NCBI GenBank assembly: GCA_015233405.1
Contig: JADFXT010000008.1
Location: 11,250-75,249, forward strand
DNA length: 64,000 nt
DNA from: Candidatus Omnitrophota bacterium
Lineage (GTDB): Bacteria; Omnitrophota; Gorgyraeia; Zapsychrales; Zapsychraceae
Direction of reading: 5' to 3'
Notes under the pieces: generated by a model
Told to the model about the DNA's origin: nothing
The model's input: only the letters and a program-made list of their open reading frames with translations
The model's database searches: none
Position numbers and translations under genes: made by a program
Shown: in pieces, positions 4,707 through 41,500 of the stretch
How positions within the stretch are numbered: the first letter of the stretch is position 1
Layout of the letters: every line of letters starts with the position of its first letter

Positions 4707-4797
4707 GATGTCTGCCCCCTATTAGACTTCATTTACTATGTCCTATATAAAGTATAAAACATAATAATGATATATATAAGGGCAAAACGGGGGTTTC

Positions 4798-4898: not shown

Positions 4899-4985
4899 TT
4901 TCTTCAGGCTTCGCTTATCCGTATTTGTCACCATGGTCCAGCCTTTAAATCATGGATCCCCGACAAAACATTTCGGGGATGACAT
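4899..4985. repeat. Composite hairpin (MITE/REP-like) element, short copy.
   Basis: ttcttcaggcttcgcttatc...atttgtca...tccagcc...ggatccccgacaaaacatttcggggatgaca aligns with 11312-11421. In this copy the first hairpin core is replaced by ccatgg. Confidence 0.7.
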
Positions 4986-9233: not shown

Positions 9234-9297
9234 AAAACACAAGGAATTCTTTCTGAAATATCTTTTAATTGTTGTCCATGAATGTTTTCTTTGATTT

Positions 9298-9397
9298 TGT
9301 CATCCCCGCAATCCTTAGGCGGGGATCCAGAATTTTGAGAACATAGATTCCCGACCTGTCTGCCGACAGGCAGGCAAAAGCTTTCGGGAATGACAAC
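9298..9397. repeat. Two hairpin (REP/MITE-like) units between mutS and mutL.
   Basis: The units are tgtcatccccgcaatccttaggcggggatccag (9298-9330) and agattcccgac...tcgggaatgaca (9346-9397). They share the GTCATyCCCG...CGGGrATCCAG termini seen at 10477, 11337 and elsewhere. The first could double as the mutS terminator. Confidence 0.7.
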
Positions 9398-9459
9398 TAA
9401 AAGAAATAAAAACTGCATAAAAAAATAAGGACAAAAATTCTTTTAAAATTATAGAAATT

Positions 9460-11311: not shown

Positions 11312-11534
11312 CTTCTTCAGGCTTCGCTTATCTACATTTGTCATTCCCGCGATCCCACCCAAAAGCGAGAATCCAGCCTTTTAAAATCGTGGATCCCCGA
11401 CCAACCCATTCGGGGATGACAATCTTTAGTTTTTTGCTGTCATTCCCAACTTCCTCGATTTTTTTATCTAGAAATGATTGGGAATCCAGGAAATAATTTA
11501 AGATACTGGATCCCGGGTCTTCGTCCGGGATGAC
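11312..11534. repeat. Cluster of four hairpin (REP/MITE-like) units in the convergent mutL / giant-ORF intergenic region.
   Basis: The cluster contains cttcaggcttcgcttatc...tgtcattcccgcg...gcgagaatccag (11337-11377), ggatccccgaccaacccattcggggatgac (11391-11420), tgtcattcccaac...ttgggaatccagg (11438-11490) and ctggatcccgggtcttcgtccgggatgac (11506-11534). These probably act as terminators for both convergent genes. Confidence 0.75.
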
Positions 11535-17500: not shown

Positions 17501-20500
17501 AGGAGAGAAAAATCCCGACATAAGAATAAGCCGGGTGGTCCAAGGAAGATTCCACATCTTCATCGGCTGTTTAATATTGCCCGTTGTTAATCCGGAGACA
17601 GCCTCGTCGACTTTTGCATATAACGCTTGAATGGTGTCATTATTAGAAATCACTCGCCCTGCTTTTGATTGATAGTCTTTTTGGTACAAGAAAAATTCGT
17701 TCTCCGCCTCAAAAACAGCCGGGCTCATCCGGGCGATGACGCCGCTTCTTTGGGTTCTTGCATGAAAACCTTTACGCCTCTCGTCGGTATTCCGCTCGAT
17801 AGACCAGATCTCATCCCACAAAGGATCTAAATCCATTTTATAAAGCTGTGCGGAATCAACAAAAACTGTCCTAGCACCCCTATGAATGGACCGGCCGATT
17901 TGCATTAAAACATATCGACGGATAAACGGCACATATATTTTCGCGTATTGCGCCATGGCCTGTTTGTTATAAGAAACATTCTTTAATCCCGCAAAAAGGG
18001 CCTTAAGAACGACCTGGCTGACAGAGAGCTTTAATAATGCCCAAACCTGCGCTAACGACGGAGAATAAAACGCGTTGTCTCCTTTAATAACCATAAAACC
18101 TTTTTGGGCCAAATATCTTACAATCGTGGTCTTACCGCTGGCCGGCAATCCTGTTATCCCGACGAGCTTTACTCCCATTTTTTCTTTTAACTCTTTAACA
18201 GATGCAATCTTTAGCTGATCACGTTTACTCAATTCCTGTCCACGGACCATTGTTTCGGAAGCAAAAGGATTTCCTGCCAAGCGTAAATATTCTTTCACAA
18301 TCGCGATATTGACTGGCACCTGGCGGACCGCGTTGATCAAATTGTCGTCTAATCCCAGACGTTTAATTTCCTTCTTTGCCAACTCTTCGTTTGATTGTGC
18401 CACAATTTGAATATCGGTCTTTGCCCAAGAATCTATAAGGTAAAAGAATCCGATCTCCGTCTTATATTCCGGATTGTTCTCTATAATCTCGCGTGCCTTT
18501 TTTCGGAACGCTTCGCTTTTGACAAACGCAAGGTTATATCCACCCGTCGACCTTCTCGCTATCCGTCGAACTTTGCCCAAGGTATAATGAAGCCCGGCGA
18601 TAGTCCCGATATAATGGATCTGCGCATCTGTTAATCCATATTTTGTTAATGCCTCGTAAATAAATCCATTTCGATCTAAAATTAAATCTCGGGAAACTTG
18701 CTCATGGTCGTCAAACGTGAAGCTTCCATTGTTCAGAGGCTTTTTCGCAAACTTGCCGATATCATGAAGAATGATCGCAAAAACGAGCAAATCTTTTTTA
18801 GCAACACCGTCTATCTTTTCCTGTAAAGCCCCCTCACATAATTCCCAAATATCTCTCCAGAGACTAGGCGCATCAAAATACGCATCCAAACATTTTTGTG
18901 TATGGGTAATGATGCCCCATTGATGCCATTTAGGCGAATGATGGAGCACATTGTCCACATCAGCGGCAAATTGTTGTCTGTAAACAGGATCTAGGGCTAT
19001 GTTATTTTCCACGACACGCTTGGCAAACCCCGTTAATAAACCAAAGAATTCTTCATGCTCAACGAGGACTTGCTTATCCACCAGGGACAGCAACATGGAA
19101 ACTTGTTTTATAAATTCAGGATTGGGCGACAATAGCCCCATGCTCTCTATAGAAACAACTTTGTCCGGGAAGATCTTATTTAATAACTCCTTAATCGTTC
19201 CGATGGCTCGCCGGGATTCCGAAGAGTTACGCTTTTCTTCGCTATTGGCAATCTCTAAAGCCTCAGCCAAATACGGCACCACACGAATCCATTTCTCGTT
19301 CATCTCCTCAGAGGAATAATTTTTGATCACAGAATCCGCCTTCTTCTTAAGCGGATTAACAAATTCTATTTCCCCATCTTCGACGATCGGCCAGTACTGT
19401 AAAGTTTGGAAAGGAGGATTGCCTCTGGTATCCAGATCACGCAATAATCTTCGCATCAAGCGCAATTCCAGAGGAACATCGACAAAGATCTTTTCTATCG
19501 GAGCATCTTTCACCTCTTCTGTCATCATCGGATCAAGAGCATAAAGCGATTCTAATAATAACGTTCCATTTTCCGGTAAAGAAACAACCCTGCCGGAATG
19601 TCTCTTACTTTCGTGGGTTTTCATATCAAACGCAGGTAAGTCAACCTCTTCTCCCCTCATCAAGCGCCCAATATCTTCTTTGGCCCATTCCAGGTGAATA
19701 GCCCCCGGCGAATCCCCATTCGGACTGCCATCTGCTTCTAACTTTGGCCATTCGGCTATATTCTTGTAATACCAATCTAACGATAACAATAAGACCGGGC
19801 TTCCAGACTTTTCAATTTCTTCCACTTTCTTCTCAGCCAAAGTCGTTTTTCCGCTTCCGCTCGGTCCGCCGATGATGATCACGTTGCGGGTATTCAGCGT
19901 CGAAGAAACTGCCTCCTTGGCTTGCGGAATTTTAAGATCTGTGAAAAGAAGCATATCTAGAACCCACTTAGAGAGCGAAGATGGACGATAATACAACGCA
20001 TCTATATCCAAATAAGTTTTAATCCCTTTCTTCGCCCAATAGCCAACGCGGCTTTCTTCCACAGTAATCCCATATCTGGAAGGCGACTTTTCTTCACCAG
20101 TAGATGGAAGAATATAATCTTTTTTGGGACACGCTTCTAGGGCAATATTTTTTTGTTTTATGATGTTAAGGATTTCCTCAACCTTTTGACTAATGCCTTG
20201 ATACTGGCGGCTCTGCGGATAAAGATTCCGCAAAATAAGAGCATGGCCGATGCGTGAATGATCTGGCAATATTTCTATGGCATCACGGATATACTTTAAG
20301 TGAGCATGAATGACTTTCTCGTTATCCAACTTATTTATTTCTCCCAAATGCGCTGTGATGACAAATCCTTCTTGATGCGCCAAGTTAATAGCATCCTTCC
20401 AATAAGATATAGGAAAATTCATATCAGACGCACCGGAGAAATCTATGCCATACATTCTCGAAGAATATTCTTTTCCGCCCTTCTTCAAATCAGCCAATGT

Positions 20501-23500
20501 TTGTATAACATCCTTAAATTTCTTGGGATCTTTCATAAAGGGGTTTCCGCGATTGAAGGAAAACATAAACTTGACCTGATGCTTGCCACCATAATGTTCA
20601 TCCGCATAATTTTCCGCTTCCGTAGCAACCTTATAAATATCCCACAGTCTTTCGTCGATAGAATCATAATAAGGCTTGCGAGGATTGAATCTTAATTCAA
20701 CCCATTTCGCTCCATCCGCGAAAGCTTGTTCGATGGCACGTTTTGCCAACTTTCTTGCAAATGCCTTTTTATCCTCTTGGTTTTTATATAAATCTTCTGG
20801 AAGGTCTTTGACATCGGACCAGCCTAACAAATTAATGTCATTTTTCTGCTCGAGATGAGATAGAAATGTGTTATTCGATATCTTTCTATCACGTAACATG
20901 TTGGCCAAATCTTCTCTCATTTGGTTCTCTGAATATTTGTTATTATCGGCCATTCGTAAATATTCTTTAAATGCCTCCCGTATATTCAGTTCTCCGTTTT
21001 TCACCAAAGGCTTGTCTCCAGCTTCTTTTCTCTTAAGGTCAAACTTACCTCTATCAGCTATCAAAAGATCTATAAATTCCTCATCAGGATATGAGGCCGT
21101 CGTATGATAATGTACTGTCAATTTTCTCCAAATTGTTCTGATCATCCAGATAAGCGCCTGATAAACAAGATTATCGAATAACGAAGAAGGATCTTCTTTT
21201 TGCTCTTCGATATTGCCGACTTTTTCCTGAAGGTCTTTTATCACGGATAATGTTTTTTCAGAAAAATTCGGCCTCTTAGCCAAATCACAAAACACTTGAT
21301 GGATTGTCCTATTTTCATCACGCTTTATCTCGTCCTCTAAAAGAACAACTAAATCTGAAATCTCTTTGATGCGCTCAGGAGTGAAATATTCAGAAGTCTT
21401 ATGCAATTCTTCATAGAAAACAGGCGCCATTTGTAATCGTTGCTGGATGTCAGCTTGATAGAATTTCTGAACAAATTCTTTGGCTAACTTTTCCATAGCC
21501 TTATCGTGATCAGGATTGGATTCATGCTTTTTGATGATGGAATATAAGCGAGGATTTTGACTACGCCCAAAATCTTCAGGGACGTTCCAAAGGATTTTTC
21601 CGTCTTCTTGTCGACGAGCGATTTCAAATTTTTCCGGTGGACCGCGAAGCGTAATTTGATTCTTCTCTGCCGCACTTTTGACCAGATCAACAGCTTCCTT
21701 ATAAAGTTGCCGAAGCTGAGCTGCTGCCTTAGGATGATAATTCGCCACCGCTAACTTAAAGTCAATCGGTTTGATCGCGTGGGTGGAAGAATTTTTCTTT
21801 CCCGATAAGCCGGATGAAGTTTTCTTCCGTTGACGAGTCAATCGATTCTTGAGCGTTTTACTCAAGGTAAAAGGCTTTATGCCTTTAACGAAAGCTCCGA
21901 TATTCTTTAAAATACCTTTGGGTTCCGGCGCACTCTCGACGGGTTTCGCCTGCGGCTCTTCGATCTCAACAATATCTTCACGGGTATCAACAGCGTCTTC
22001 TCGGGCATCGGCCTCGCCGGTCACATCATGGCCCAAAGAAGTCGCGGAAGCTATTCTGTAGCGCAACTCTTCAATAGCATCTTTTCTGTCCGTCGAGCTT
22101 TCGACATATCGGCCGGACACAAAATTGGTCACCCCGCCCTTGGCCGCCTTGGAAATATTCTTGTCCGTAATACCTCCCTGAATAAGAATTTCACCTTTAA
22201 ACTTTCTCTGCTTGCGCAGTTCTCTGGCCTTATATTCAACCGGTGTAAAATCTTTTCCGGTCCCGGCGGTGATGGAAGACGTCAAGCAGATCATGTCTGC
22301 TTCTTTGAGGACCTTGTCGGATAACAAAGAAACCTCTTCTTCCAATTCAAGGACAACGCCGGCCAGCTTTTTATGTTTCTTGATAAACCTTAGAATATTA
22401 AGCAAGTCTTTCTCGTCGGCGAAACTATCTCTCTGCACCTCAATACTGCGGACATTAAGATCCTTGTTACAATAAGAAGACACTAATTCCGCGCTCGGAT
22501 TTAAAACCATCAAATGAACATCCATCAGAATATCGAGATCAAGAATTTTTCTCAGCTTTAATAAAAATGTAGGGGTCACCCAGTTGCTATTGGCAACCAA
22601 ATTGGGGCTCAAACCTTCTTTATGAAGCTTATCGAGAAATGACTGTTCAATCCTGTCAATATGAATAAAATCTGCACCGATCGACGTAGAACCGGCCATC
22701 TTCTCCACAAAATAATCCTGCGCGACCTTGCCACCTAAATTGCGAACTTGATTCTCGGTAAGATCAGGGAACGGCACGCCGATCAAGATCGGGCGCTTGG
22801 CGGTCAGCTTGCTCCAGATAACCACAACTGCGGTTAACCCCAAAGCAATCAACGTAGTCCATAAAAGCGTCATAAGTCCGTACGAATGGCTCCAGATGAT
22901 GATCCCGGCGGCAAAAATGGCTAGGACGCCTAAATTGGCAGATAAAAACAGCAAATAAGAAAATCCTGGATGGCGTCTATTAGAAATATAATTACGGAAC
23001 AAAGAATTCAAATACCCCGTCGCAAAATTAGCCAAGACGCTAAACGCCGGCGGCACGACGTTTTGCACAAATTCGTTCTGAATAAAGTCCAACGGCATTC
23101 TGGCTTTTAAGGCCAACCATTGTTTGTTAAGTTGGCTCTTATAGGAATAATCCGCTAAAAGCTTATTGGCTTTTTTATCAGGCATGTCGTGAGCCTTTTG
23201 CCTGTCACGAATGTACATCTTGATAAATCGCGGATGGAAAAATATCCCGTAAAGAAAAGTAATGGGAACTCCCCAGGCCAGAGAAATCAAGACGCGGGTA
23301 AAATGATAAACTCCGACGGGGAAGAAATGGTTGATGACAAGGATAAAGAAAATGTCCGTCGCAATTCCTTGGATAAATCGCCAGCCCATAAATTCCCATA
23401 ATCTTCGGTTCAACCGGCTTTTAAAAGCCTCGCTGTCGGAGAGAATGAGCGAGAAGCGTTCGCTCGACGCACCAAATATGGCGGAAATAAAACCGGAAAC

Positions 23501-26500
23501 GATAATAATCAGAGGTGTATACCGGTAGGCCTTATAAAATCCTATTAAATCTTTAGCGAAAATTGCGCCACACAAATAATTCATTCCAACCAACGCAGCG
23601 ATAAAAACCGCGGAAACGATAAAATAATGGATGACCATCTTCTTACGCAAAGCCTGGACATCCTTCTCCGTCATCCCCACCTCGATCTTCTTCTGTTGGA
23701 TACGGCGGATGACCAAAGCTGTTAAATTTTGCGACTCCTTCTTACTCTCAAATCCTTTTTCGATGTTTTTTCTTTCAAAAGCGATAAGCTCACGGCCGAG
23801 GGCGGTATCTTGATATTCGATCGGAAGGTAAATCAGGCCATCGAGGACACAGCTAAGGACAAAGGCTCCGGAGGAAGAATACAAACAAGGAACTCCGGGA
23901 GATTGATTACGGATATCGGATTCATTTAACTTGACATAATACACATGCCCACCGACGGGAATGACCGTGTTCTGCTTAATAATGGTGCGTAGCGCTGACT
24001 CGATTTCTGGCTTGAGATTGCCGTCCTTGGTCAACTGCCCACGCCCGCAGGCAAAATTTTTCTTATCGCCATTATTTTGAACTGGCTTGCTTTCAGACGA
24101 TTTCGCCGGCGCCGGCGCAATCTGCGTTGACTTCTTCCAAACCGCCATTTGGGCGAGTAAAGATTTTCGTAACGCTTTTCCTTGGAAGACCAACTTAAAC
24201 AAGAACTTGATCGTCTCAAGATCGCCTTTCCACCACGGCATATTTTCATAACGATGGTCGATCTCTTCGGCAAATTTCCCGACGCCGTTATGCCAATATT
24301 CATCAAATTCCTCTAGGCTATTCCACCGGTCATACCCGCCCAAACCCTTCCGTAAGAAAATGCCCGGGCTAAAAATCCCATACTGGGAGGTAAAAGAACG
24401 CTGAAGCCTACGCTCTTGGTCTGGCGGAAACGCCCTCGGGCCAAACAATGCAAGCTGGCCCATGAGAACGTTAAATAGCTGCGGAAGCTCGTCGAGCAAT
24501 GTGCTTCTTAAAAATTTCCCGCCGGGAATGTGATCAAAATTATTATTTCGTGATATCGTGTCCTGATCTTCCGTTGCCGGCTCATAAGGTGTCAGTGTCC
24601 TAAATTTCAACATCGTAAAGAGCTTGCCATTACGGCTATACCGTTTCTGTTTATAAATAATCGGGCCGGGATATTTTCCTTGACGGGACCAAAGATAGAC
24701 GGCAATGAAAGCCATGGCAGGTGAAAAAACAATAATCGCAACCAAAGAAACAATGATCTCTACCGCCCTCTTGATCCAGATGTGTCTATCATGGATGGTT
24801 TTTGAAACGACCGTAGGAACAAGACCTGAAACAGCGGACTTTTCCTCCAAGAGTTCATCGACGGTTCGCTGAATTTCTTCCTTCATAAAAGAATCAGTTT
24901 TAAGGCCTTTAACAATTTTCCAGGTCTTTCCGTTCGACCGGACAGGGAACCCGAACATAAGACCTTTTGGTATTCCATAACTTCCGTCGGAAGCAACCGC
25001 TACGGAGAAGAACTCTCCTTTCGGCGTGGGCGTTGTCAAATTCTTAACCGTATCAACAATAGCCTGGACCGCTGAAATAGCAGAAGATTTCCCGCGCGCT
25101 TTAATAACTTCCGCGCCCCTTTGCCGGGCTTTTGTCAAAAATTCCGACTTAAGCCATGCTTCATCCAATACATCCACAACGGGCCTGCCTTGAATTGTCG
25201 CGTGAAGAAAATCAGGATATTGCGTCGCAGAATGATTGCCCCAAACCGCTATATTTTTTACATCGGAAACATGATAACCGGCCTTATTTGCCAAAAAGGC
25301 CTTAGCCCGATTCTGGTCCAACATCATTAAGGCGAAAAAGTTTTCTTGCGGAACATTTTTCATAAAGGCCTTAGCAATGTAGGCATTGGTGTTCGCCGGA
25401 TTTCCGACGACCAGGACCTTGCAGGACGGTTTGGCATTTTGGGATAATGCTTTACCCTGGGCTGCAAAAATTTCGCCATTGATATTCAGAAGGTCTTTGC
25501 GCTCCATCCCATTCTTACGAGGCATTCCTCCGACGAGTATAGCCCAATCTGCATCCTTGAAAGCTTCCGAAAGATTACTCGTGGCAATGACTGTCTTAAG
25601 TAACGAAAATTTATGGTCCTGAATCTCCTTCGCAATTTTTGCTAAGGTGTCCGAAGCCTGCGGAACATCCAAAAGCTGAAGAATGATCTCTGTTTCAAGT
25701 CCAAACATTTCGCCCGAAGCGATACGGGGCAATAGAACCCGGCCGATCTGTCCAGCAGCGCCAGTAACCGTCACCTTCATCAATTTCGTCGGCGAGACGA
25801 CATCTTTTCTGCCTTTATTCAAAAATTCTTCAGGGATCTCTGTTGCAGCCTTCCCTTGGATCTCCAAGATAGTTCCCTCGCCAGAGAGAACATAATTCGC
25901 GCCTTTTAAAGCCTGCTCATAATCATCGCCCCATGTCACAGAACTTAAGATCGGCGACGCAAAATCTTCAAGTTCCATAACTAGACCTTTTAAGATATGG
26001 CTATTTTCAGCACTATCGACGAGGCGTAATTCGATATTCCGCTTGCCAAACATCTCGCCGGAAACAATGCGAGATAGCAAAGAATAAGCTTTCTCACTAG
26101 AAGCTCCAGGCACAACGACTTTAAGCGATGGCTTAGAGGTAGGTTTCTCTTGTGTTGTGACTTTGTTTTCTTCTTTTCCCGACCCTATCGCCTCATTGAC
26201 CAGTTCAGCGAATTGCGGAAAATATGCTTGGTACGCTTTCACATTTGTTTGGTTGGGCTTTGTGACTTTATCTTCAGTCGCGGCCAGATTCTTCAACGCA
26301 TCATTCCAAGACAATTGATTGTCATGTGTTGAATCATAATAGGCCTTACGTGCGACAATGGCGCTTCCCATCGAGACCGGCTCTCTGCCGCCCTTTAACA
26401 TGCGGACATCCGCGTTAAAAATATCCGCAATGATCTGACGGGTGGTGGCATTACGCGCCCCGCCGCCCGTTAAATTGATTTCCGTGACTTTAAGCCCAAT

Positions 26501-29500
26501 TTGGTCCGCCACCCATTTTAAGAAATACGTCTGGCCTTCCGACGCGGCGCGTAAGATTTGAGCGCGATTTTCTTTTGTGAAATTACCAAGGTTTCGCGTA
26601 AAATATTTGCCCGGTGTGTGCGGAATCCTGACCGCTTCTTCCTGCGTATTCTGCGTGATCATCATCGCCCCGTTATTTCCCGACGGGACCGTTGCTAACA
26701 GCTCTTCAAAGATCTCCCATTTGATGTTACTGATATCATCTTTATCTTTCTTGTCATCCATGACCGGCATGCGTCCGTATTTCTTCTCGAACCGCACAGA
26801 CGCTTCTTCGGTTGTGATGTACATATCGCGAATGTCCCGTAGCGCCAGCCCGCCGTTCTGGAAGCATACCAGCTTCATATACTCGCCCGTCGGCTCTCTA
26901 AAGACATGGCCAATAATATTCTTGAATGTCGCCTTAAGGTTTTTCTGATTTAGATAAGTATATAAAGTAAAGGACGTCCCTAAGCTCATGGCGATCGCAC
27001 CCGGTTTAACGATCCCTTGGCCGGTCATACTGGCCGGATTATCTCCCGTCAAATTTACGACAACCGTTTGGTCAGAGAATCCGTATTTCTTGACCCAATA
27101 CGGCGCAATTTTACCCACAATCTCCGTCGACGGCTTAAGTCCGCTTAATTTTTTCCGCACGCCCGGGACCAATTTGTCTAATTGACGAAGCCAACGGCCC
27201 TTCTTGACATCCATTGCATTGGTTCCGGCTCCGTCGCCGAGATCCCACGGAAACCGCGCATCTGCAGTTAATAGAGATCCGTTATACGCGGCAATATTTA
27301 AGATCGTGTCCGTCTGATCATACGCTGCTTTATTTTCATGATAAAACCTCATGATCTGCGGGAAGGAGAATCGAAGCTCTCCCTTGGACCCGGTCAGCTT
27401 CATTAATTTTTTAGCCCCGCCAAAGAATTTCTCCAGTTGCTCAACTTCAGCCCCGGTCGTTTTATCCATCCAGATCGGCGCTGTTTCCCTCGAGAAGATC
27501 CCTTTAATCTGCTCCTCCAGCGGAAGGTTAGGATTCAAACTCTTAAGTCTTTGAGCAGCTTCCTTGTTGTAATAAACCGTGCCGTGCTGCTGGCCTGCTC
27601 CGGAAATTGCTTTAATATTCCCGACGCTCCATCCCTTCTTTGCAAATTCTTCCTTTAACACCTGCATATTTCTATCCAATGCCGCAGCCAACATCAAAGG
27701 CGAAGTGTGATTTAAGTTCGTATTCCCTTCCCTTAACTTCACTAAATACCCGTAGGGGGCGTTATACTTGGCATACTGCGGGTCTTCATATTTTTCCTGG
27801 TGAGACCAAACGATTTCGTTCTTATCCCCGTCGATAACGGTCATCGTCACCGACTGAGTACTCGAATTAACCCCTAAGAACCAGTTGTGGGAATTATTGA
27901 GATTAGACAATAACACGATCTCTGCATTATCCAGCTTGACATTTCTCGCATCTATTTCTCCAGCTTCATTAATTGATGTTTTATCGCCCAAAATGATGCG
28001 CATCGCGCCGATTTGCGTACCATGACTGAACATCACAACAGTTTTACCTTCATATTGGCGGTTCAACTTCATCAGTAGCTCTTTAGTCCTCAGAAGTAAA
28101 TCCAGATAGCTTTCGCCTTTTATCGGCCGCACAATGACGTCGCCCTCTTGACGATATCTGTTGACCAATGCCTGATCTTCGAGTGAAAGGTCTGATGGAA
28201 CTTTATTTTCCCAAACACCAAATGACCGTTCTTTAGCTAACGGCTCTTCGATAATATTGATCTTGATCCCGGTTTGCTCTTGGACATACTCGACAAACGC
28301 ACGGGCCGTATCCATGGCTCGGGTCAGCGGGCTTGCAATAACGACGATCTCTTCGCCGGCAAGGATCTTGGATTTTAATTGGGCGAATAATTTTTCTGCA
28401 GCTGCTTTGACTTGTTTCCGCCCATTTTCAGACAACTGATTGACCGCCTCATCCACGTCGCCCTGGAATGATCCCGGAGCCAGATTTTTTTCTGTCTCTC
28501 CGTGCCTGACCGCCCAGAATTCAAATCGAGGAGCGGCAACACTTGTATCATGATTACTAAATTTGGTTTTGTTCGTTCTTTGGTTGAGAAGGATCTTTCC
28601 GTCGAGATCTTTGATCGGCGTCCACATATTATCTAGAATTCTATCGAGCTTATCTTCTACCGCATCAATGTGTTTCTTCAATTTATTCTTTTCATATAAA
28701 TAGCTAAAATTCTCTGAATAATATCCTGCCGCGAAGAAAGCAGCCCCGGCAACAATGAGGATAAGGACAGGTAAAATCACCTGCGTCAAAATTGCACCGA
28801 TTCCCGTCGCGGCACTAGCCGTTGCGGTTAATCCGAATAAAACCAATAATCCGATTTTGGAAATACTTAAAGGTTTTCGCGCCTGGCGTGAATCCTTAAC
28901 TTGTGCAGGAAAATCAACAATCAATCTTAACTTTTGATTGGATAATTTGGCGAGCGCCTTCCAGAACAAACTCGGTTCAAATTTAATTCCGTTATCCGTC
29001 GAAGAAACTTCATAATTTCTAAACGTTGCAAGATATTTAAAGCCCGCCCCGCGAGATAATCCGAGCGCCTTCGTCAAAACAGAAGCACTGCTGTTTTCTC
29101 CGCCGGCCGCACTTAAACAGCTGTCAAAAAGACCAACGCTTCCACCGGCGAAATAATCTTTATAATCCTCAAGCGGCTTGGCCTCTTTTGAGCCCAAAGC
29201 CACCTGAGTGGCTTTGAAATTATTTTTCTCTTCCGCGGCTTTCATAATGATGTTACCGACGATCCCATGCGCCGATAAATACAAAAGATTCCATTGTTCC
29301 ACATCTGCCGGCATGGCTTTGATGGCCGCAACAAGCTCCTGGATGCTACTAATTGGAGAAGGAACAACAATCCTGTATCCGGATTCCTTGATGCGCTTGG
29401 CTTGTCTTTCAAAATAAGGTTCAAGGGAACCCGAACGGTAATCCGCGCGTAGTAGAAGCGCACTGCCCGCCGGAAATCTTTCTTTTAAAGAAAGCTTTTC

Positions 29501-32500
29501 GATAAACTGTTGTGCTTTTTGGTTCGGCAGATCTTCCAAGGCAACCTTGGCCATCATGCGCTTCGCATAAGAAGGCGATTGCCTAAATATCTGCGTCAAA
29601 ACATCAACAGCCTTGTCGTCGCCTTGATGCTTTAAATAAGCGATTTTTAATCTCGTCGGGAACGAAAAAATATTTTGTTTGGTCAAGACCGGCGCCCACT
29701 GCAGTATATTTAAGAATGATTTATTAAGTTTACAACTCGCAAGAAAAACCGCCAACATCGTAAGCATGGTAACCATATGGAAAATCGTCTTTGCCGACCA
29801 CCACGCTGCTAAAGAATAAAATACCCCGGCCAATAGCGAGAACGTTATGACACCAACGCTCATCATAACAGCAATGCTCGTCGTGATAAGGCCGGTTCTC
29901 TGAATGGAAGAAACCACCTGTTCCGGCGTCTGTTTAAAAACTTCTTTCCATCCAGCATTCTTTAAAGGTTTCGCCTCAATGTTTTCTGATGAAATTTCTG
30001 TCGGATTGATTGGCGCATAAACCACTTTTCCATCAGAATCAATACCAACAACATTTTCCGTAGCATCTTTCTTTTGAGCAAAGACCAATTGTCCCTGTTC
30101 ATCGATTCCCGCAAAATCACTCACCGGCAAGAGCTCTTCTTTCTTTTCTTGGCCAAAAATCATCTCTCCGTTATCATCAATGCCTATCAATTGTTCGACA
30201 GATTCGTTGGCGGGGGCCTCTTCCTGCTCTTGCCAATCCTCCACATTTGGCTCTTGCGTTTGCCCTAATAAACTCTCAATATCTCGACGGATTTCCTGCG
30301 CTTCTTCATCATTGGAGTCTCGATTAAGAGCTTCTTGTATATTTGCCAAAGCCTCGCCATATTCAAAAGATGATTCATAGAGTTTTGCTCGTTCCTTATA
30401 AACCTCAGCGTTTTGAGGATCAAGTCTTATCGCCTGATCAAAATCACTTAAAGCTTCCTCCTTAAACCCTAACTGGGCATTCATAATTCCTTTCATAAAA
30501 TGAATCTTGGCATTCCCAGGCTCAAGAGTTCCAGCTTGCGTAAAGGCCTCCAAAGCATCTTGATATTGCTCTAATTGCCAATAAGTAAACCCAAGCCCCG
30601 CGTACACCTTGGAATTCTTGAAACCTAAATCGATTGCTTTTTGAAAATCTGCCAAGGCCTCCTGGCTTTTGGACAATTCAAAATGAAGATAACCACGCTT
30701 ATAGTAAGCCCTGACATAATTCTCGTCGATCTCAAGGGCTTTATTGAAATTAAACAGCGCTTGGTCATAGTCGCCGGACTGAAAATCAACAAGGCCTAAA
30801 ACGTAATAATTTTCTGCGCCCTGGTCATTTACGCCACCGTTTAGAACAAGAGGTTTCCGCTGCTTCTCCGCTTCCAGCGCCCTTCGCTCATGAGTTTTCT
30901 TTAATCGTGAATGGAATTCTAAAGAAAGAACAAAAATGGCTGTACGGACCCAACGAAGAACTCTTTTCTTTAAAGGAAGATTATCGAGGAATGGCTTGCT
31001 CATCTTTTGAATGGACTGGCCAATATTGGCAAGCTGTTTATTACGCATCAACAATAGCCCATAAGCAAATCCCGTCAATAAACCGATCAAATGGCCAACC
31101 TGAGCAACCGGAGCTATGGAAGCATGGGCCAATATATATACCAAAGAAATAGAAATTAAAAACGTTCTCAAATATGGATTGGATCTCGTGGCAATAAACG
31201 CGGCGGTTAATGCGAAGTCGACAACAGAAAAGCCTAAAATGTTTTGGACAAGATATTTATGCAATAAAATCAGATAAAGCCCGCTAGAAGCCAAGATACT
31301 TAATAATGAGATTATCAGAATATTCTTAGCGCCCAATTTCTTTTCAACCATATTCCCAAAGAGCCACACCACCAACATATTGCCTGTAAAATGAATTAAA
31401 TTATTGTGTAAAAATGCATGTGTGACCAGCTGCCAGATATAACCAAAATGCCAAACAGCATAGGGATATAAGGCAAAAAGATGTTTCATCCCCGTCGGCC
31501 AGAACTGCTGGAGGACAAAGATCAAGGACATGGTAAGAATAAGGCCGGTCGTCGCAGGTCGGGAAACAAATCGACCGGACTTATGTAAAATAGCCGCTAT
31601 GAGAACCAGAGCGAACGTCACAGCCATCATCACCAGGGCGGTTTCATAATCAAGGCCAAAAAACGTAGCAACAGGTTTAACCACAATAATAGTATTCGCA
31701 TTGACCACGCCTCCTAAAGCCAAGACTCCAAGAAAAGCTTTAGTGAAGAAATTTCTTCCTCTTCGAGAAGCAACAGGTTTCTTCTCAACCTTATTGTTTA
31801 AAGGAAGGTCCTTTTTCCGGCGGATTGAAGTTTTTGATTTGTCAGGACGAATCGCTTTCATAATATTCCACGACAACATTGATTCGAGTGTCGCGATGGC
31901 ATTGAATATTGCATGAAGCGTGATGGACGCAAAGAGATTGCCCGTCGTATAATAAACATATCCAAGAGCTATCCCCATAAACCACTGGATAATATTTCCG
32001 ATTTTTCCATGGGCTGTTCTAAAAATATTCGTGCTATAAAGCAGCGCTAAGAAAACCCCTAACGAAAGCTGCAAACTGACATCGAAGCCTATTGCGGGCA
32101 AGAGTAAATGAAATGGCTGGTTAAATCCCCATGGGAGAATATGCGTAAATACTTTCACCAAAAGTCTAAAGATGCCGGCTCTAAAGAACATCTCCTCAAC
32201 AATAGGAGCAATAACTGCCACAGGCAATAAACCGAACAGGAAAGACCAATTGGATAGTTTGGGAGCGTCAGGTTTTTTATCTTTCTTTTCCTTGGCGAAA
32301 ATAAAATTCGCCATAACAACAACAAAACCAATCGCATTGATTATCCATAATTTATTTTGCCAAAAGAATTGCCAACCGGCCGTTATTCCAGCTCCAATAG
32401 AAAATTGACCATGAAACAGCATCCAGAAAAAGAGGACCACGATAATTGGCCGTGCCACAACAAACAAAATTGTAAAGATAGGATTATTATATTCTGTAAC

Positions 32501-35500
32501 AAAACCTCTTAAAAATAACGTTGTAAAACCTGCAACCGTCATTAAAAGGAAACCGATTCCAATATTAGGGACAGACAAAAGCGGCGCCACTTGAAAAGAT
32601 CCTGTCATGAGCCAATAAATTTCAACGCCGATAGCAACCAATATACCGACGGCCCATGGAGCAGGAGATTTCCTTATATTATTGAGGCCAGTCAAAACCT
32701 TCTTTACGTTCAACAAAAATTTCGAAGGTTTCCGAGACGATTTTGATTTAGAAATCACTTTAGTCTGTTGGACTTTCGGAGCTTTTATTAGCGTAAGCTC
32801 TTCAGACATGATGTTAAACTGTTGCAACTGCTTAACTTCACTTGGAAAGGATTTTAAGGTTCTCTGCTCGGCATTCTCATGCGATAAACCTTGTGATTCT
32901 TCAACAAATTCATGATAATTAATAGCTTTTAGTAAAGAGGCTGGATTTTCAACAGTTTGGAGTTTATTAAATACCTTAGACGAGAGATAAATCTTCAAGA
33001 CGCCACTTTCCTCAATAGCAAAGATAAAAATCTTTGGCATCGTCGGCGGAGCAGTAGCGGCAAACTTTGCTAAATAAAATTTCACGGGCTTAGAATATAA
33101 ATATTTGTCCGCGATTTCCTTGAATAATCGTTTTGGCGACGCCACCAAATGTTTCTTTGCCCAAACTAAATGCTCTTTAGTCAAATTTCCGAAATAACCG
33201 TTGGCCTCTTTTTTGTGTTCTTCCGTCGGTCGAGCAGAGGCTTTTTTCTTGAACACCTTAACCAACGCCAACCCCAACAATCCGCCGCCTAAATAACAAA
33301 CCGCCGCCCAAAAATTACTGATCCCCATTTGAGGAACGAACAAGGCGACATACGCGCCGAAGAATCCGACAAACGTTCCAACCAAGAAGCCAACATAAGA
33401 CCAAGCGTTACCCGGCAATCGAAAAGCAAAACCCTTCTTCGTAGAGAATTTAGTCCCTAAAAGCCACATAACGATGATGGACCACGTCGGGTTAAATAAG
33501 GACCCCACGGATATCATGGCATCAGAACCTTGCGGTTTATTTAAATTGAAATAATCGATTTCCGGCCAATATATCCAATTTAACGGAAGCCAGCGACGGA
33601 CCTTTTCTTTATTATTTTCTATCATCTCTTTTGTGGAAATCGGCTTGATCCATCCTCGGGACATAGCAAACTTTTCATAAAGTCCAAAAACAGCCATACT
33701 CCAAAGCACGCAAATGATTGTTGTTGCGGTCTGATTGACCAAGACCTTGAACAGCATTCCAAATACCGTCGGGTCTATAAATAAATATTGGTTGTAAAAG
33801 ACACGTAATCCTGAGGCAAACAAAAAGCCCATACAAAGAGGGATCACAACAACCATTTTCCAGAATTCCGCTTTCTTTTCACCCACGCTCAATTTTTGTC
33901 CTTTGATTTGATTAGAAACAAGACAAACAACTTCTCCGACGATGCTAAAGATCGCCATATTGACCCAAGAAGGAAATATCCGTAACGATCCCGGGAAAAC
34001 CAAAAGAACTGTGACTGTCATCATAGAAGTTAAAATCATCAGAAATATGTAGTTATGCTTCTTTAACCACGAAATCCATTTCTTCTCTATTTTTGGCTCT
34101 ACAACTTTTTGTGGCTTAGGACTCGACATCACAAGAGCGCTCTTTACATCGACGGGTTTATTATGAATTTTTGCATATCTCTCTTTTAAAGGTTTATATT
34201 CCAATATCGAAGCATAGACTTCACCGACGATCTTTCTGACCAAAGCAAAGCCTGCGCCAGATGGATTAACAGGCGACGGCTTCGGTAAAATATGAAGCGT
34301 CGTGTAAATCTGCTGCAATTTTTCCAAAGCAAATATCCCGCCGAATGTCAGATAAGCCCCAACACTCATCAAAATGCTGCGGAAAATATCTTTTTGGGCA
34401 GTCTTGATTGGATAATTCCGAATGATCCTCTGCGAATAATTCAGCGCTCCACCGACTAAACTAACCAGCAAAATATCCAAGGCGACATTGACCTTCCCAT
34501 TCGCTACAATAATGAAAAAGACAAGATAAGCCCCGACGCTCATGGCAATGCTGCGGACAATATCTTTCTTGGCGGTGTTCTTGGGATTATCTCGAAGAGT
34601 CTTCTGAGAATAATTCAACACAACAACGGCCAGGCCAATAAACACAGCAATATCCAAAATAATACTGAAAGCCATTCCATGGGAAACCGCACTGATAGGA
34701 TTAGAGACGAACACTTTAGTCGCTACAATAAGGATGCTTGATAAACCGCTCACCAATATGTCATTGGCTAACTGACGTCGTCTGATTGCGGAGGACTCCC
34801 ATTTTCCGGTTACCTTTTTATTGGCAAGTAGATTCACTCCAACATTATGAATAACCATCAATAATACCCAAGTCAAAGCGGCCCAGAACGAATACGAAGA
34901 AAAGCCTTTGCTGATGGCCATTCCTAAAAATGTGGCGATGGAGCCATAAATCATTTTTCTGTAAGTAACCGCACGGAATTTATTGTCACTATCCGGCCTG
35001 CCATTCTCGAAGAAAATGTCGGAGCTGGCCTTGAGCCTTGAGAGAATATTCTTACGATGATCTTTTTCCGACTTAGGACTAAACATCCCTGTCAGATAGG
35101 CAATGCTCTTTAGATTAAATAGATTTTTTGTTAATACACTAGTAACGAAGTGCGGAATGTGAAGAAAAACTTCAAGGTATTCATGGAGGCTGATGGTCTT
35201 AAGAATTTCCAGCGTCATCGGGCGAGTGCGGTCTTCGGAAACAATCTTTGTAGCAGAAGATAACACAATTGGATCACTATCAAACTTCGATTGAGAGCAA
35301 AATTCAGGCGAGAAATAAATCTTTAAGGTACCGCTTTCTTGAACAGCAAAAATAAAATCGTTGGGTAGGCTCGGCGGTGCAGTAGCGGCAAACTTCGCCA
35401 AATAAAACTTTACCGGCATACCAAATAAAGAAATTCGGATATTACCAAACAATTCCTCTGGCGATATAACCATGTTCATTTTAACCCACGCCAAAAGTGT

Positions 35501-38500
35501 CTTTGTCAAATTCCCAAAATATCCATAGCTCTCCGCCGGGTTCTTTCTCGACGAGTTATTATCCTGGATTGGCTTATTAGGATTCACGACTTTTAAGCTA
35601 TATTGTTTACCGGAATCCCCTAGATCATCCACAAAAATAGATCTTTTACCCGCCACGGCTTTCCAGAAGGCAAGCGCGTCTTTATAGATATAGGTGCTGG
35701 TGATCTTAGAAACCTTTAGAGTATTAAATGCGTATTGCTTGATCTCATTAAATAACCTGGTTCCAATTCCACGGCGTCTGTGATCCGGATTAACAGCGAG
35801 CGTCATAATAACCACATCATCAGACCTGACATTGAATTTGGTAAAACCAACAATTTTATTATTCTGGTCGACGGCAAATCTGGCATTGGCGTCAAAATAA
35901 TTTGTATACGGGAGAGAAACTCTATGAAGCACGCTTGTCTTTTGGGCCCACTTTGTTAAATTGTCCCAAGCCGCCTCAACTTCTTGTTGACTCATGATCG
36001 TATTAAGATCTTTGGGTTCCACAATCCTGACGGATGCTCCTGTTACAGATTGAATGACGATATCAGCGGATTTCGTCGAGATCTCCTCTTCTTTCTGAAC
36101 CGCATTCTTCCTTTGCTCCGTAATCTCCGTCGCCTTTTGTTTTCCTTCCCCATTAGACATTAACGAGCCCGCCAGAAAAGAAGACAACGCCAAATCAAGA
36201 TTACCCGCTAATCCAATATCGCCAGCTTGCCGTGTACCGTTCATGGAATGTCTTGCCCCACGGGCAGAATCAAGCGCACGCACTGACATACGGACGAGAT
36301 ATTTTCCTCTTGCTAAATGCGGACCGCTTAAGAAAACCCTGCCGCTGCCGGCAGAAACGCGGATTTGCTGACGACGAACAAGCTGTCCTGAAAGGTTAAA
36401 GACTTTGACATCCAGATCTGCCGGCTTCGCCAAAACGTATCTGACTTCTATCGTGCTGCCGGATAGGTCATAGCGGACAATGATATTGCTGGGAACCAGC
36501 GAAGAAGAATTATCCAAAGTCGGTGTTTTCTTCCAGGCGTTCTTAAGCGTTGTATAAACAGCTTTCTCTTGCCCGTCGATCGTAAGAAGCCCATAATATT
36601 CTTCATTGGAATAACTATCATACGGCACACCGTTGTTCGCAGCGCCGCCTGCATCCTGCTGCGACGGATTTCCGGCTTTCCACCACTCATCACGCCACTC
36701 CATGAAAGTCACGCCGATACACGTATCTTTATATTTATTGACCTCGGTCCAAATATTTTGGACCGCCTGGGCCTGTGCGGCCGCATCAGCTTTGCCGGTC
36801 TGGTTGTTATAAGAATCCGTCCCGGCCTCCGAGAAATACATGCCTACATCTTTGCCAAGCTGGGATTTTAAAGTCTGCCACTGGGTAAAAATATTGGTGC
36901 CGCCGTTACGTTCACCGGCCGGGTCATCCCATCGATACACATTGATTCCCCAAATATCCACACTCGGGCATTTTTTGACCACATCCAGCGTCGGGATCTC
37001 TCCGTGGGCCGTTGCCGTCGGATGATTTGCATCATTAGCTTTTGCATAAGCCGCAGCCGTTTCAAGCTCCGTATACCAATTATTAATGTCGTTACTAAAC
37101 CATTCCGGATGAAAATTGTATTCATTCCCGAATTCCCAGAACAGGACCGCCGGGTGGCTCTTATAATTCGTAATAAAAGTTTTATAGCCGCCGTTATAAA
37201 TGTCCGGCCCGGGAACGGTGCGGTCATCATTGTGCGGAATATTAAAAATCAAGAATATCCCGGCGGCGGCAAAAGCATCCAGAACAGTTTTATCCGTTAC
37301 AGGAAAATAAAGGCGGACCGCATTGACGCCCATATCGACCATCTTGGCGATATCCGTGGAAAGATTGGTGAAATCATAACCGTCTTTATAAGTTTTTCCT
37401 TTAGCCACCGGTGAATAAGTGACCCCGCGGATCTGGGTCACGACGCCATCAATAAGAAGTTTCCCGCCGCTTTGTTTGACGACTCGCGGACCAGCAGCAG
37501 CCAAGGTCTTTGCCGTGGCAGAAGTTTTCGTTCCAGAAAAAGTTAGAAAAGCCAGGCCGGCGCCCAACGCACTTAAGAATCCTCGACGGGAAACAGGCTT
37601 CTTGTCAGCTTTGGGGGTTTCAGAAATTGTTTTGTCAGCCAGAGTAGAAGCTATGGACTGCTCATTTTTCGCGTTTAGATCTTTTATCGCAATCGGGAAA
37701 AGAGGCGCGTTGACTAAATCAAACCGGAAGCTATCTTTCTCGCCAGCTTTCTTAAATCCAAGACCAAGCCAGAAGGAATCGTTGACGGAGTTTTTAATAT
37801 CAAAATACGAACAGCCCAGGTCTTTGGATATGGCAAGCCCCAAAAGTGCGAGCGCACCCCCCAAATGTTTCTTGCGTAGGGCTAAATCGTAAACCTCAAT
37901 GGCATTGGTTCCTTGTTCATAACCATAATTAGCGAAACCAGGATTGAAATAAAAATATCCGGCCATCTGCTTTTGATCGTTAAGATAAGCAAAAATGGCA
38001 TATGTTTGATTTTCGGGAATGCTGCTTAGCGTCTTTAATTCAAAACGGACAACTGTTCCGTCGGTCGCCTTGAGTGACAACTCGCCATTCGCCAATAGAA
38101 TTCGATCAGCGTCAATCGGAGTCATTTCTCCAATGACGACCTCTTTGTCCACCAAAGACAATAAGGTAGAAACTTGTTTCATAAATTCAGAACTGGGCGA
38201 CGATATGCCCATACTCTCTATGGAAACAACTTTGTCCGGGAAGATCTTATTTAATAACTCCTTAATCGTCCCTATGGCTCGCCGGGATTCCGGAGAATTA
38301 CGCTTTTCTTCGCTATTGGCAATCTCTAAAGCCTCAGCCAAATACGGCACCACACGAATCCATCTCTCGCTCATCTCCTCAGAGGAATAATTTTTGATTA
38401 CAGAATCCGCCTTCTTCTTAAGCGGATTAACAAATTCTATTTCCCCATCTACAACGATCGGCCAATACTGTAAAGTTTGGAAAGGAGGATTGCCTCTGGT

Positions 38501-41500
38501 ATCCAGATCGCGCAATAATCTTCGCATCAAGCGCAATTCCAGAGGAACATCGACAAAGATCTTTTCTATCGGAGCATCTTTCACCTCTTCTGTCACCGTC
38601 GGAGAAAGCGCATAAAGCGATTCTAATAATAATGTTCCGTTTCTAGGCACTGAAACAATTCTCCCAGAATGCCTCTTACTCTCGTGTTTCTCAAAATCAA
38701 ACGAAGGTAAATCGACTTCTTCGCCATTCATCAAGCGCCCAATATCTTCTTTGGCCCATTCGAGGTGAATAGCCCCCGGCGAATCCCCATTCGGGCTGCC
38801 ATCCGCCAACGTTGGCCATTCGGCTATATTTTTATAATACCAATCTAAAGACAACAATAAGACCGGGCTTCCGGATTCTTCAATCTCTTTCACTTTCTTC
38901 TCGGCTAAAGTCGTTTTTCCGCTTCCGCTCGGTCCACCGATGATGATCACTTTGCGGGTATTCAGCGCGGAATTCTTAGATGCGGAGTTCTTCTTGTCCC
39001 AATTTTTTCCTAAAATAATCTTTTTAAACCATTCAAAACCTTTATATCCGAAGAATAACCCCATCGCAAATCCACCGGCGTTATAAACACCGCTGGCCAA
39101 TACTTCCCCTGTTTTGGCCAGTATATTAAGGTCCCCTATCGAGAAGTCCGTCAAAGACATCATGATGCCAAAAGAAATGTTGACGAAAATAGCTCGACGA
39201 GCGATACTCCAGAAGTTTTCTTTCACAAATTTCCAGCTTAATGATTTTTCTTCATCCTGAAGAGACTGATAATTAATAGTGAACACAGCGTTCGCTGCCA
39301 GAATAAACCAAATCATCCCGAGCCCAAACAGAAAAGAGCCAAAAGACGTCATTGCGTTAATAGCGACAACAGCTCTCGTCACTGTTTCCGCATTAGCTAG
39401 AGCACCGGACAACAAGATAAAGAAAGGAACCAAAAATACTAATTTTTTGGGCGATAAAAAGGACGGAATTTGTGAAAGCGCTTTCCATGAAGATAAAAAT
39501 AAAGATTTTGCATCTCTACAAATTTCCGGCGCGAATAAAGAAGCAGGGAAAGAATACAACGTAACATCCTTAGTCTCTGCTTGAACTTGGGTTTCTTTAG
39601 AAACAGGCAAAGGATTAATTTCCTTCAGGACTTTCTGATATTCTTCGTCGACAACATGGCGGATTTCATTAAAATCTTTGATCGAATTAATTTTCGCTGC
39701 CAATGCGCGAATTGACTCATCGTTTTCTTTTTTGGCAATCTCAGTCAAGAAACCAACTAAAAGAGTTTTTGCCCTTGCTTTATAATCATCAGACTTTACC
39801 CCGCTTTGAGGAATGTGGATGCCGAATTCTAGTGCATAATAACCAAGAAGGGTATTCAGAGTGCTCAGATATAATTCATGACTTAAACTATTATAAAGCG
39901 TAAAATTACAAAAATCCTGCGCAGCGATAACCGCCTTCTGATAAAGATTCTGTTGGCTTATGGGCCGGCCCTTTAGTGCGTCATCGATACGCCGTAAAAC
40001 CATTGGATCACGGAGCATCTGAATTGAGACCATAACGCCATCGCATCCTGTTTCGAGCATTTTGACCGCATCATCCGCCGAAGAAATATCGCCGTTACCA
40101 TAAATCAGCTTATCCGGGAATGCCTTCTTAAGCCGCTCTAAATAATCCCATTTTGCTTTGGCTGTCTGCGCTTTCTCGAATTTTCGTGGGACATCATAAA
40201 TTTCAAACTGTGTGCGGGTATGTAAAGTGATCCAATCCGCTCCGGCTTCAAAAAGTTTCTCAAAAAATTCACGCGTCGCTTCTTCATCCGGATTATGCGA
40301 ATCGTCTTTAAATAATATCCTTGTTTTAACGCTGACCGGTATTTGGACATGGGCTTTGACCTCTCTAACGATACGCGCCGCCAATTCAGGTTGATAGGTC
40401 AAACCAATTCCGCCAGTAATCTGCTTACCTTCAGGAATCCCCTCAACTTTAACCATTATTTTTTGATTAAATAAAGGAACGCAACCCATATTAATATCTA
40501 TCGCGGAGGCACCTTGCCGCTGGGCAATCAAGGCCGCTTTGACAAAATATCCTACGATTTTATCTTCGCTATCAAAAATCTGTTCCTCATTAAGCTCTTC
40601 AGGAAGGCTGTGGGGACCTGCAAGCTGAATGATCACATATCGTTCAAGGCTTGAAATATCAAGACGAGGTAAACCAGTTTTCCAGTCCGCATCAAACGAA
40701 AAACGCGGATTATAAAACGGTTTAGAAAAAATATTTCCAATACGAACCAAATCCGACTCAGTCATGAAATCGGCTTCGGAGCCTAAAAGCGCCCCAAGTA
40801 ACACCCTCTTGGCAACAACCGTCAATAGATCAACCGGCCCAGAAATTTCCTTTGGCATATTTTTATTTATTATTCTTTCAACCAAAGATTCTCTTCGCAT
40901 CCATTTGATCTTTAAAAATTTCCGTCTCTTGACAGGAGCTGATTGAATCTGGTATCCCCAATTAGAATTAAAATCTGTAAATTCTACAGTTCTTAGCTCT
41001 TTCTCGGGCATGCCAAAAATACTAACTATTTGAAGCGTTCTTGTCGGATTAGGAATAAAAAACTCCAAGAAATACTCAGACCCCTCTTTGGAAACACGGG
41101 CGGGAAGTGTAGTGTTCACATTCCCCAAAGATTTAAATCCAAACTTTCTGATGACCTGGGCATAAATATTACCTTCAAAATTTAATAGCTGTTTTGCCTG
41201 CTCCTTAAAAAACCTCAGCGGAATCTTTATGCGGAGAGCATCATATGAATTTCCAGTAGATACGACCTTAGTATCACCAAGTTGCATAATGCGACACGAA
41301 ATCGCTTCTTCTTTAGCTGTTAAGATTTCGGGGAAATAGTCCTTGTTGTCCTTTTTCAGGGCCTCACGCAAAATCGAAGATAAACGATCTCGAATCAAAA
41401 GAGGCACTTTAGTGGAAACTTCACTCCACTTCGCTTCTGGGATATCTAAACCATTAAATTTAATCATAAAATCAACTGCTAAACGTTTTGGCTCTAAAGT

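Follow-up and report, generated by a model that had tools for sequence, protein, structure and literature searches.

A uridine-kinase-like module carried twice by a giant gene of an Omnitrophota bacterium, with mosaic divergence between copies 19 kb apart

Introduction

By what route does a gene encoding more than 10,000 amino acids (aa) acquire its parts, and is the process over? Giant genes of the Omnitrophota, with products of 10,000 to ~147,000 aa, have been recognised only recently, and their origin and growth are described as unresolved. The question is raised in concrete form by a 64,000-nucleotide (nt) stretch of contig JADFXT010000008.1 (assembly GCA_015233405.1) from a Candidatus Omnitrophota bacterium; this whole stretch is referred to below as the window. 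Within it, a single giant open reading frame (ORF) carries two closely similar copies of a module related to uridine kinase, placed 19 kb apart, which a first-pass annotation had taken for a recent duplication. Here we describe the module, its two settings and its relatives, and argue that the pair is better described as paralogous modules in partial concerted evolution.

Results

Two in-frame copies in unrelated settings

Both copies lie on the minus strand, in an ORF of 17,397 aa (63766..11573). Copy A occupies 38132..38974 (aa 8265–8545; 281 aa) and copy B 19061..19906 (aa 14621–14902; 282 aa), as delimited by repeat search and by protein and DNA alignment; Pfam places the kinase (PRK) core of A at 38378–38950 and that of B at 19310–19882, leaving C-terminal extensions at 38132–38377 and 19061–19309, respectively. 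A repeat search of the window returns the pair as two families of direct repeats: 19060–19359 with 38131–38430 (91% identity, spacing 19,071 nt) and 19740–19904 with 38808–38972 (90%, spacing 19,068 nt). The alignments place the change of spacing at a one-codon indel, an extra Glu found only in copy B (aa 14677; 19736..19738, minus strand). Both spacings are divisible by 3, and A and B share one frame of the one ORF.

Across the repeat, 757 of 843 aligned DNA positions are identical (89.8%), with 86 differences in addition to the codon indel; the longest identical runs measure 85, 66, 51 and 47 nt, and local alignment of the proteins gives 89% identity. Outside both borders, identity drops to ~25%—the random level—within a few nucleotides. 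With the copies 19 kb apart and both flanks at random identity, the arrangement is not a tandem segmental duplication. Self-comparison of the window thus confirms what the first-pass annotation had claimed, an in-frame duplication of a uridine-kinase module in unrelated contexts, with copies of ~0.84 kb; their location had been given correctly, but the repeat extends 12–15 nt further at each end. A pair of near-identical antisense ORFs, to which attention had also been drawn (19323–19544 and 38394–38615), does exist, but is a trivial by-product of DNA identity, since as many as 105 plus-strand stretches of at least 70 codons run without a stop in the giant gene.

Upstream of copy A is a Dus (dihydrouridine synthase-like) domain (39938..40549, minus strand; Pfam), separated from the module by two or more transmembrane helices (aa 8109–8157). 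Copy B instead follows an adenosine-deaminase-like domain (20114..20758, minus strand; a weak Pfam match of 25.6 bits against a cut-off of 27) and precedes an HD phosphohydrolase domain (18659..18823, minus strand; 23.3 bits, cut-off 22). These three flank labels agree with those first proposed; the fourth, a GNAT-like domain directly after copy A, does not, the stretch immediately downstream having no Pfam match at E<=1 and the Pfam-detectable GNAT domain lying ~740 aa further on.

A P-loop kinase core with an extension predicted to fold with it

At the level of family and fold, the label ‘uridine kinase’ is sound. Both copies match PF00485 (phosphoribulokinase/uridine kinase) well above its cut-off of 22 bits (A, 60.4; B, 62.1), and the features that mark membership of the PRK family are all present: a P-loop (GxxGxGKT), a catalytic Asp after strand 2 and the lid arginines (RRxxRD). 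In a family alignment of 49 sequences, the invariant positions are G14, S18, G19 and K20 of the P-loop, D44 (the Asp of ‘LDWYY’) and R151, R155 and R160 of the lid. The best relatives of solved structure are the uridine kinase of Thermus thermophilus (E=1.5e-17) and human UCK1/UCK2, aligning over module residues 9–195; in the same sequence search, residues 196–281 have no match among solved structures. As a name for uridine kinase proper, the label does not hold: against the curated NCBIfam equivalogs, copies A and B reach 102.9 and 99.8 bits where the cut-off is 220.3 (TIGR00235), and 100.6 and 96.2 bits where it is 180 (NF004018), so that neither copy attains either threshold.

In an AlphaFold2 model of all 281 residues of copy A (pLDDT 91.4, pTM 0.85), the kinase core is joined by two long helices and a beta-alpha-beta element; as modelled, the repeat unit is one compact fold. 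Searching with this model in Foldseek returns, as the top 33 PDB matches, only UCK1, UCK2 or T. thermophilus uridine kinase (target-normalised TM scores 0.71–0.77). The predicted picture is therefore of a P-loop kinase core of ~190 aa with the uridine-cytidine-kinase fold, together with a C-terminal extension of ~85 aa that folds with it.

Set beside the enzymes it most resembles, Udk and UCK2 (PF00485; PDB: 3asy/3w8r and 1uj2), the module shares the P-loop, the Asp of ‘LDxYY’, the ‘RRLLRD’ lid arginines, the overall fold and 27–33% sequence identity. It differs in being embedded in a giant membrane protein, the canonical enzymes being free proteins of ~210 aa; in its extension, which lacks a solved counterpart; and in several changed base-contact residues, with a score less than half the NCBIfam equivalog cut-off.

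Selection on both copies and a mosaic of synonymous divergence

Over the whole repeat, the Nei–Gojobori method gives 0.334 substitutions per synonymous site (dS) and 0.057 per non-synonymous site (dN), and the ratio between the copies, which the first-pass annotation had proposed calculating, is 0.17; third codon positions differ 53 times and second positions 13 times. Both copies have been under purifying selection since they separated. When the two modules of their nearest relative (P0089, described below) serve as outgroup, derived substitutions are distributed symmetrically, seven in A and six in B, which argues that neither copy is decaying. Being under purifying selection, and having kept their catalytic motifs, both are most likely active kinases acting on nucleosides or related substrates.

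The divergence is far from even along the module. Codons 1–127 have a dS of 0.52, codons 128–250 of 0.09 and codons 251–281 of 0.97, with dN/dS at 0.15 in each of the three regions. The central low-divergence tract, a putative gene-conversion tract (38223..38595 in A, 19152..19524 in B; both minus strand), accounts for 11 of the 86 differences in its 373 nt, the other 75 falling in the remaining 470 nt of the repeat; none of 300 codon permutations reached the observed contrast when the repeat was scanned for the stretch with the fewest synonymous differences. The amino-acid differences between the copies are concentrated at the ends and around the substrate hairpin (codons 91–127). A five- to ten-fold change in synonymous divergence at equal dN/dS cannot be explained by differences in protein constraint; the mosaic suggests instead that the copying itself is older and that a tract of gene conversion passed between the copies afterwards.

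An embedded RNA or an antisense gene was considered as the cause of the conserved centre and set aside: the tract has no Rfam match, neither of its strands folds better than shuffled controls (z-scores 0.04 and -1.04), and antisense ORFs are commonplace in this gene.

These values alter one part of the first description and lend weight to another. ‘Recent’ suits the central tract, but with dS of 0.52 and 0.97 at the ends the duplication was not a single recent event; the suggestion that the repeats offer a substrate for recombination fits a divergence pattern that points to a conversion tract passed between them.

Relatives of the module

No sequence in the collections searched is nearly as close to A or B as they are to each other. 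Queried with copy A, a word-indexed set of 5.8 billion protein clusters yielded free uridine kinases, none above 35% identity, and a profile search gave the same picture; GTDB species representatives reached 26–27% identity and JGI metagenome contigs 27–32%. Among 1.84 billion representatives searched exhaustively with HMMER, P0089 (E=1.4e-107) is the one clear relative, and none is closer than its 40% identity.

P0089 is a complete gene of 4,741 aa on a 32-kb ENA metagenome contig (ERZ27247989, k141_4294370; L003:4080-18305). It too holds the module twice, at aa 1665–1949 and 2617–2890, with ~40% identity to A and B over all 281 residues. Its two copies are 53% identical to each other, as against 89% for those of the window, and its repeat unit is longer (~400 aa), through an extra conserved region of ~120 aa downstream; correspondingly, the last ~35 residues of the window repeat align to a region of P0089 that is then followed by ~120 further conserved residues. 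Upstream of the P0089 copies is a nucleotidyltransferase or a methyltransferase; downstream is the ~120-aa region, with NDK after the first copy. Like the window protein, P0089 carries domains of nucleotide metabolism (cytidylate kinase, NDK, HD), and it is otherwise unrelated to the window gene except for a PEP-utilizers_C region at 27% identity.

A neighbour-joining tree makes A and B sisters, and likewise the two copies of P0089, with both pairs in a clade that also holds a module of a 7,252-aa protein; each lineage thus came by its two copies, or homogenised them, independently of the other. Separately, we note exactly two PRK/Udk-like modules per polypeptide in several unrelated proteins: P0090, P0092, P0093 and P0123 (~1,100–1,170 aa) and P0204 (455 aa). 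Paired kinase modules may be a recurrent architecture.

The giant gene and its host

The frame of the giant ORF stays open for a further 234 nt upstream of nt 63766, to the end of the window (nt 64000), and a PPDK_N domain extends into these additional nucleotides; only part of the gene is therefore contained in the window, its true 5′ end lying outside. The single frame holds ~25 distinct Pfam families and encodes ~48 hydrophobic helices. In order, the domains are PPDK/PEP-utilizers, dCMP deaminase, four LOG (Lysine_decarbox), peptidase M50, HEAT, Dus and kinase copy A; then GNAT, Rce1-like, rhomboid, TPR, His_Phos_1, FGGY, Ldh, Bac_transf and ribulose-phosphate epimerase; and lastly the adenosine-deaminase-like domain, kinase copy B, HD, AAA_18 and radical SAM/SPASM.

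By its Omnitrophota host, its length (the class begins at 10,000 aa), its many enzyme Pfams of which none dominates and its many transmembrane helices, the protein is a member of the published class of Omnitrophota multi-enzyme giant proteins. In this ‘multi-enzyme metabolic cluster’ class, 65% of members repeat Pfams within one polypeptide (bioRxiv 10.1101/2023.11.21.568195; bioRxiv 10.64898/2026.06.07.730766). Shared between class and window protein are the Omnitrophota host, a length above 10,000 aa, dozens of transmembrane helices and many unrelated enzyme Pfams; of the domains frequent in the class, PPDK_N, Lysine_decarbox, HEAT_2, TPR, Radical_SAM, GNAT and HD are also found here. The main text of the 2023 preprint (bioRxiv 10.1101/2023.11.21.568195) makes no mention of PRK or uridine kinase.

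Enzymes of nucleoside, nucleotide and pentose metabolism are markedly concentrated in the giant ORF (11573–63766), the set comprising dCMP/cytidine deaminase, four LOG domains, Dus, the two Udk-like modules, the adenosine-deaminase-like domain, HD, an AAA_18 kinase, a His-phosphatase, ribulose-phosphate epimerase and an FGGY kinase. The window protein and P0089 together suggest a theme of nucleotide salvage, one that the cited papers on giant genes do not stress.

The MutS encoded beside the giant gene has a 100% identical counterpart at NCBI, listed under ‘MAG: Candidatus Omnitrophica bacterium’ (MAG, metagenome-assembled genome), and the next-best matches that bear a source name are nearly all from Omnitrophica/Omnitrophota (62–75% identity). 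Exact look-ups of the window MutL and of this identical MutS retrieved no contig. Of the MutS relatives, the closest, at 75% identity, lies on an 8,354-nt Logan contig (L007; ERR14964779), where the gene order is that of the window: a 467-aa ORF, mutS, mutL and a convergent large gene. Over its last 408 aa, the product of this large gene has only a marginal match to the window giant protein, at a short ‘KG(H/R)(L/I)YRP’ motif (E=0.03). Either the giant gene thus diverges much more quickly than the housekeeping genes beside it, or it was replaced; both fit the fast turnover reported for giant genes.

Older repeats in the same gene

Module copying has occurred repeatedly in this gene, and the kinase pair is its youngest case in the window. 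A double LOG (Lysine_decarbox/SLOG) module is present in two copies, making four LOG domains (49700–55200, minus strand; aa 2853–3263 and 4267–4680), with 45–53% protein identity, 74% DNA identity over 276 nt and a spacing of 4,242 nt; this pair is an older in-frame module duplication. A linker module occurs three times on the minus strand, at ~41657–42190, ~35015–35560 and ~32801–33226 (aa 7193–7370, 9403–9584 and 10181–10322), its copies 24–43% identical around the core ‘PVKFYLAKFAATAPP...(I/V)F(A/G)...LK(I/V)...HEY/F’; a hidden Markov model (HMM) of the three found no further copies. There is, in addition, a partial Ldh_N duplicate. With such older internal paralogues (LOG–LOG, linker, Ldh_N) at hand, the original suggestion that the gene grows by module duplication is a fair reading. 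Short ‘HExxH/HEF/HEY’ motifs are seen in similar contexts elsewhere in the giant protein and in P0089, and one might speculate that the linker module is a cleavage or protease-like element.

A possible third kinase copy, degenerate and uncertain, consists of a Udk-like P-loop and an ‘SDWF’ motif (46949..47083, minus strand; aa 5562–5606); its sequence, ‘VPVFIFDGTPGSGKSS...LHLESDWFLKRK’, is broken by a hydrophobic segment. The evidence for it is weak: hhalign against the Udk profile aligns 43 columns at 49% probability, and there is no significant Pfam match.

Two further kinds of repeat lie outside the giant gene. A second large ORF (3–4718, minus strand) is cut off by the left edge of the window; its product, of at least 1,572 aa, combines a hydrophobic segment at the N terminus with tandem units of ~562 aa (nt period 1,671–1,689) that are 72–80% identical to one another. 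Short palindromes resembling repetitive extragenic palindromic or miniature inverted-repeat transposable elements (REP/MITE-like; ‘TTGTCATCCCCG...GGGGATCCA’) occur at 4944–4984, 9297–9353 and 11366–11422, occupying intergenic gaps around mutS/mutL and beside the 3′ end of the giant gene. MutL itself (9460–11280) has an odd low-complexity insert (‘CHSRESGNPGLGSKILDGIQNPSRNSKEILDPRFREDDRKRGWDDRNDA’) that resembles translated copies of these elements.

Discussion

A proposed history of the two copies

We think it probable that A and B are paralogous modules that arose by non-reciprocal copying inside the giant gene, in an older event followed by a later gene conversion of ~370 nt, and that both were kept as likely kinases. 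The copying would have followed the borders of the folded module exactly and preserved the reading frame, placing the same kinase in two enzymatic settings: after the Dus and transmembrane pair (A), and between the adenosine-deaminase-like and HD domains (B). The ends would then have diverged to a dS of ~0.5–1.0, and the central ~370 nt would have been copied again much later (dS ~0.09), by homologous recombination between the copies across 19 kb. Purifying selection, on this history, would have held both copies with their catalytic motifs intact throughout. Past the 3′ border, ~13 residues of copy A may still resemble P0089, and those of copy B do not; this hints weakly, too weakly to rely on, that A is the donor context and B the newly placed copy. 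A foreign origin for the module was also considered and rejected, as its GC content at third codon positions (0.48–0.50 in the copies) is within the range of the giant gene (0.44 +/- 0.05).

Several points weigh against this account. For the conversion step, the evidence is the heterogeneity of rates between just two sequences, whose nearest other relative is 40% identical; the boundaries of the tract were chosen from the data, a choice for which the permutation test allows and the Fisher p-value does not; and copies elsewhere in the genome, beyond the 64-kb window, could have been the donors of some segments. For the kinase assignment, there is the shortfall against the uridine kinase equivalog threshold and, in comparison with the T. 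thermophilus enzyme, a set of altered residues: ‘NYDHPDAF’ has become ‘NGDSPGAI’, and the Tyr of ‘PVYDF’ is Phe. These are positions that we take, from the residue roles in UCK2, to be nucleoside- or base-contact sites in canonical enzymes, so that several contacts to the nucleoside would be changed.

Alternative explanations

The same mosaic could have been reached with no insertion at all, had both positions ancestrally held diverged Udk-like modules, one of which was overwritten end to end by conversion before a second, shorter conversion. The two-copy state of P0089, the two PRK modules in each of P0090, P0092, P0093, P0123 and P0204, and the possible third, degenerate P-loop in the window gene are all in keeping with such an ancestry, and the mosaic dS already indicates conversion at work in this gene. 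The settings of the P0089 copies, however, share nothing with those in the window; homology falls to the random level within a few nucleotides on both sides, leaving no trace of an older paralogue; and the faint resemblance of A alone to P0089, over the ~13 residues past its 3′ border, would fit A as donor and B as new. We regard an ancestral pair as unlikely on balance.

A simpler scheme, a single and fairly recent duplication with no exchange thereafter, would need the uneven divergence to reflect local constraint, local mutation or a nucleotide-level element in the centre. Amino-acid differences do cluster with the synonymous ones, at the ends and at codons 91–127; but the heterogeneity is itself synonymous, five- to ten-fold, with a dN/dS of 0.15 in all three regions and no permutation of the 300 matching it, and the tract shows neither an Rfam match nor a folding signal on either strand, its antisense ORFs being nothing special. 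This scheme we consider quite improbable. There is, finally, the matter of assembly: the source is a MAG contig, and identical runs of up to 85 nt exceed the small k-mers of assemblers, so that one copy or join might be a chimera of strain variants. Set against this are four distinct junctions, all in frame inside one 52-kb ORF; 86 differences and a codon indel bearing the mark of purifying selection (53 third- against 13 second-position changes); and flanks unrelated on both sides, such that the repeat exists in two contexts regardless. Judged from the sequence, an artefact is very unlikely, its probability close to negligible, and for the same reasons—the 86 differences with the indel, and the four unique in-frame junctions—nothing supports the earlier worry that the repeat is a substrate for assembly collapse.

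Implications

With copying followed by gene conversion as the preferred history, a precedent is found in polyketide synthase and non-ribosomal peptide synthetase genes (PMC4256081), where duplicated catalytic modules of very large multi-domain genes are likewise kept similar by internal recombination or gene conversion. The window pair differs from these in having no assembly-line logic, in modules that are neither tandem nor collinear, and in numbering only two. The novelty is modest: it lies in a dispersed repeat with 90% DNA identity and probable recent exchange, and the case is otherwise an ordinary domain duplication. Recombination between A and B would, we infer, delete 19,068 or 19,071 nt (~6,356 codons) in frame, leaving an ORF of ~11,040 aa.

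It is conceivable, if rather a long shot, that the two modules are needed together for function: either they dimerise within the one membrane-tethered polypeptide, which would parallel the oligomerisation of free uridine kinases, or the same salvage kinase has a place in each of two nucleoside-processing cassettes (Dus/TM-kinase and deaminase-kinase-HD-kinase). In both cases gene conversion would keep the copies matched. The giant protein would then be a membrane-bound machine for scavenging nucleosides and nucleotides, a reading that draws on its dCMP/cytidine deaminase, four LOG domains, adenosine-deaminase-like and HD domains, His-phosphatase and pentose enzymes, and to which P0089, with cytidylate kinase, NDK and two kinase modules, adds in the same vein. 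If true, this would give an episymbiotic or predatory bacterium a scavenging role beyond the cell-wall-degrading function proposed so far.

For the growth of giant genes more generally, the locus would serve as a datable example, in which an entire enzyme module, able to fold by itself, was duplicated in frame at a remote position of the same gene, both copies were retained under selection, and the two were later partly homogenised. The 2026 preprint (bioRxiv 10.64898/2026.06.07.730766) scanned only tandem nucleotide repeats, and judged repeats to be old and ‘dissolved’ at the DNA level; the repeat described here is, by contrast, dispersed, with copies 19 kb apart that are still 90% identical as DNA and carry a putative conversion tract. 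That preprint's conclusion of an old repeat architecture would thus be qualified, since it was based on tandem repeats only. Exchange of DNA between distant parts of a giant gene would appear to be ongoing, and module repeats would hence not all be ancient.

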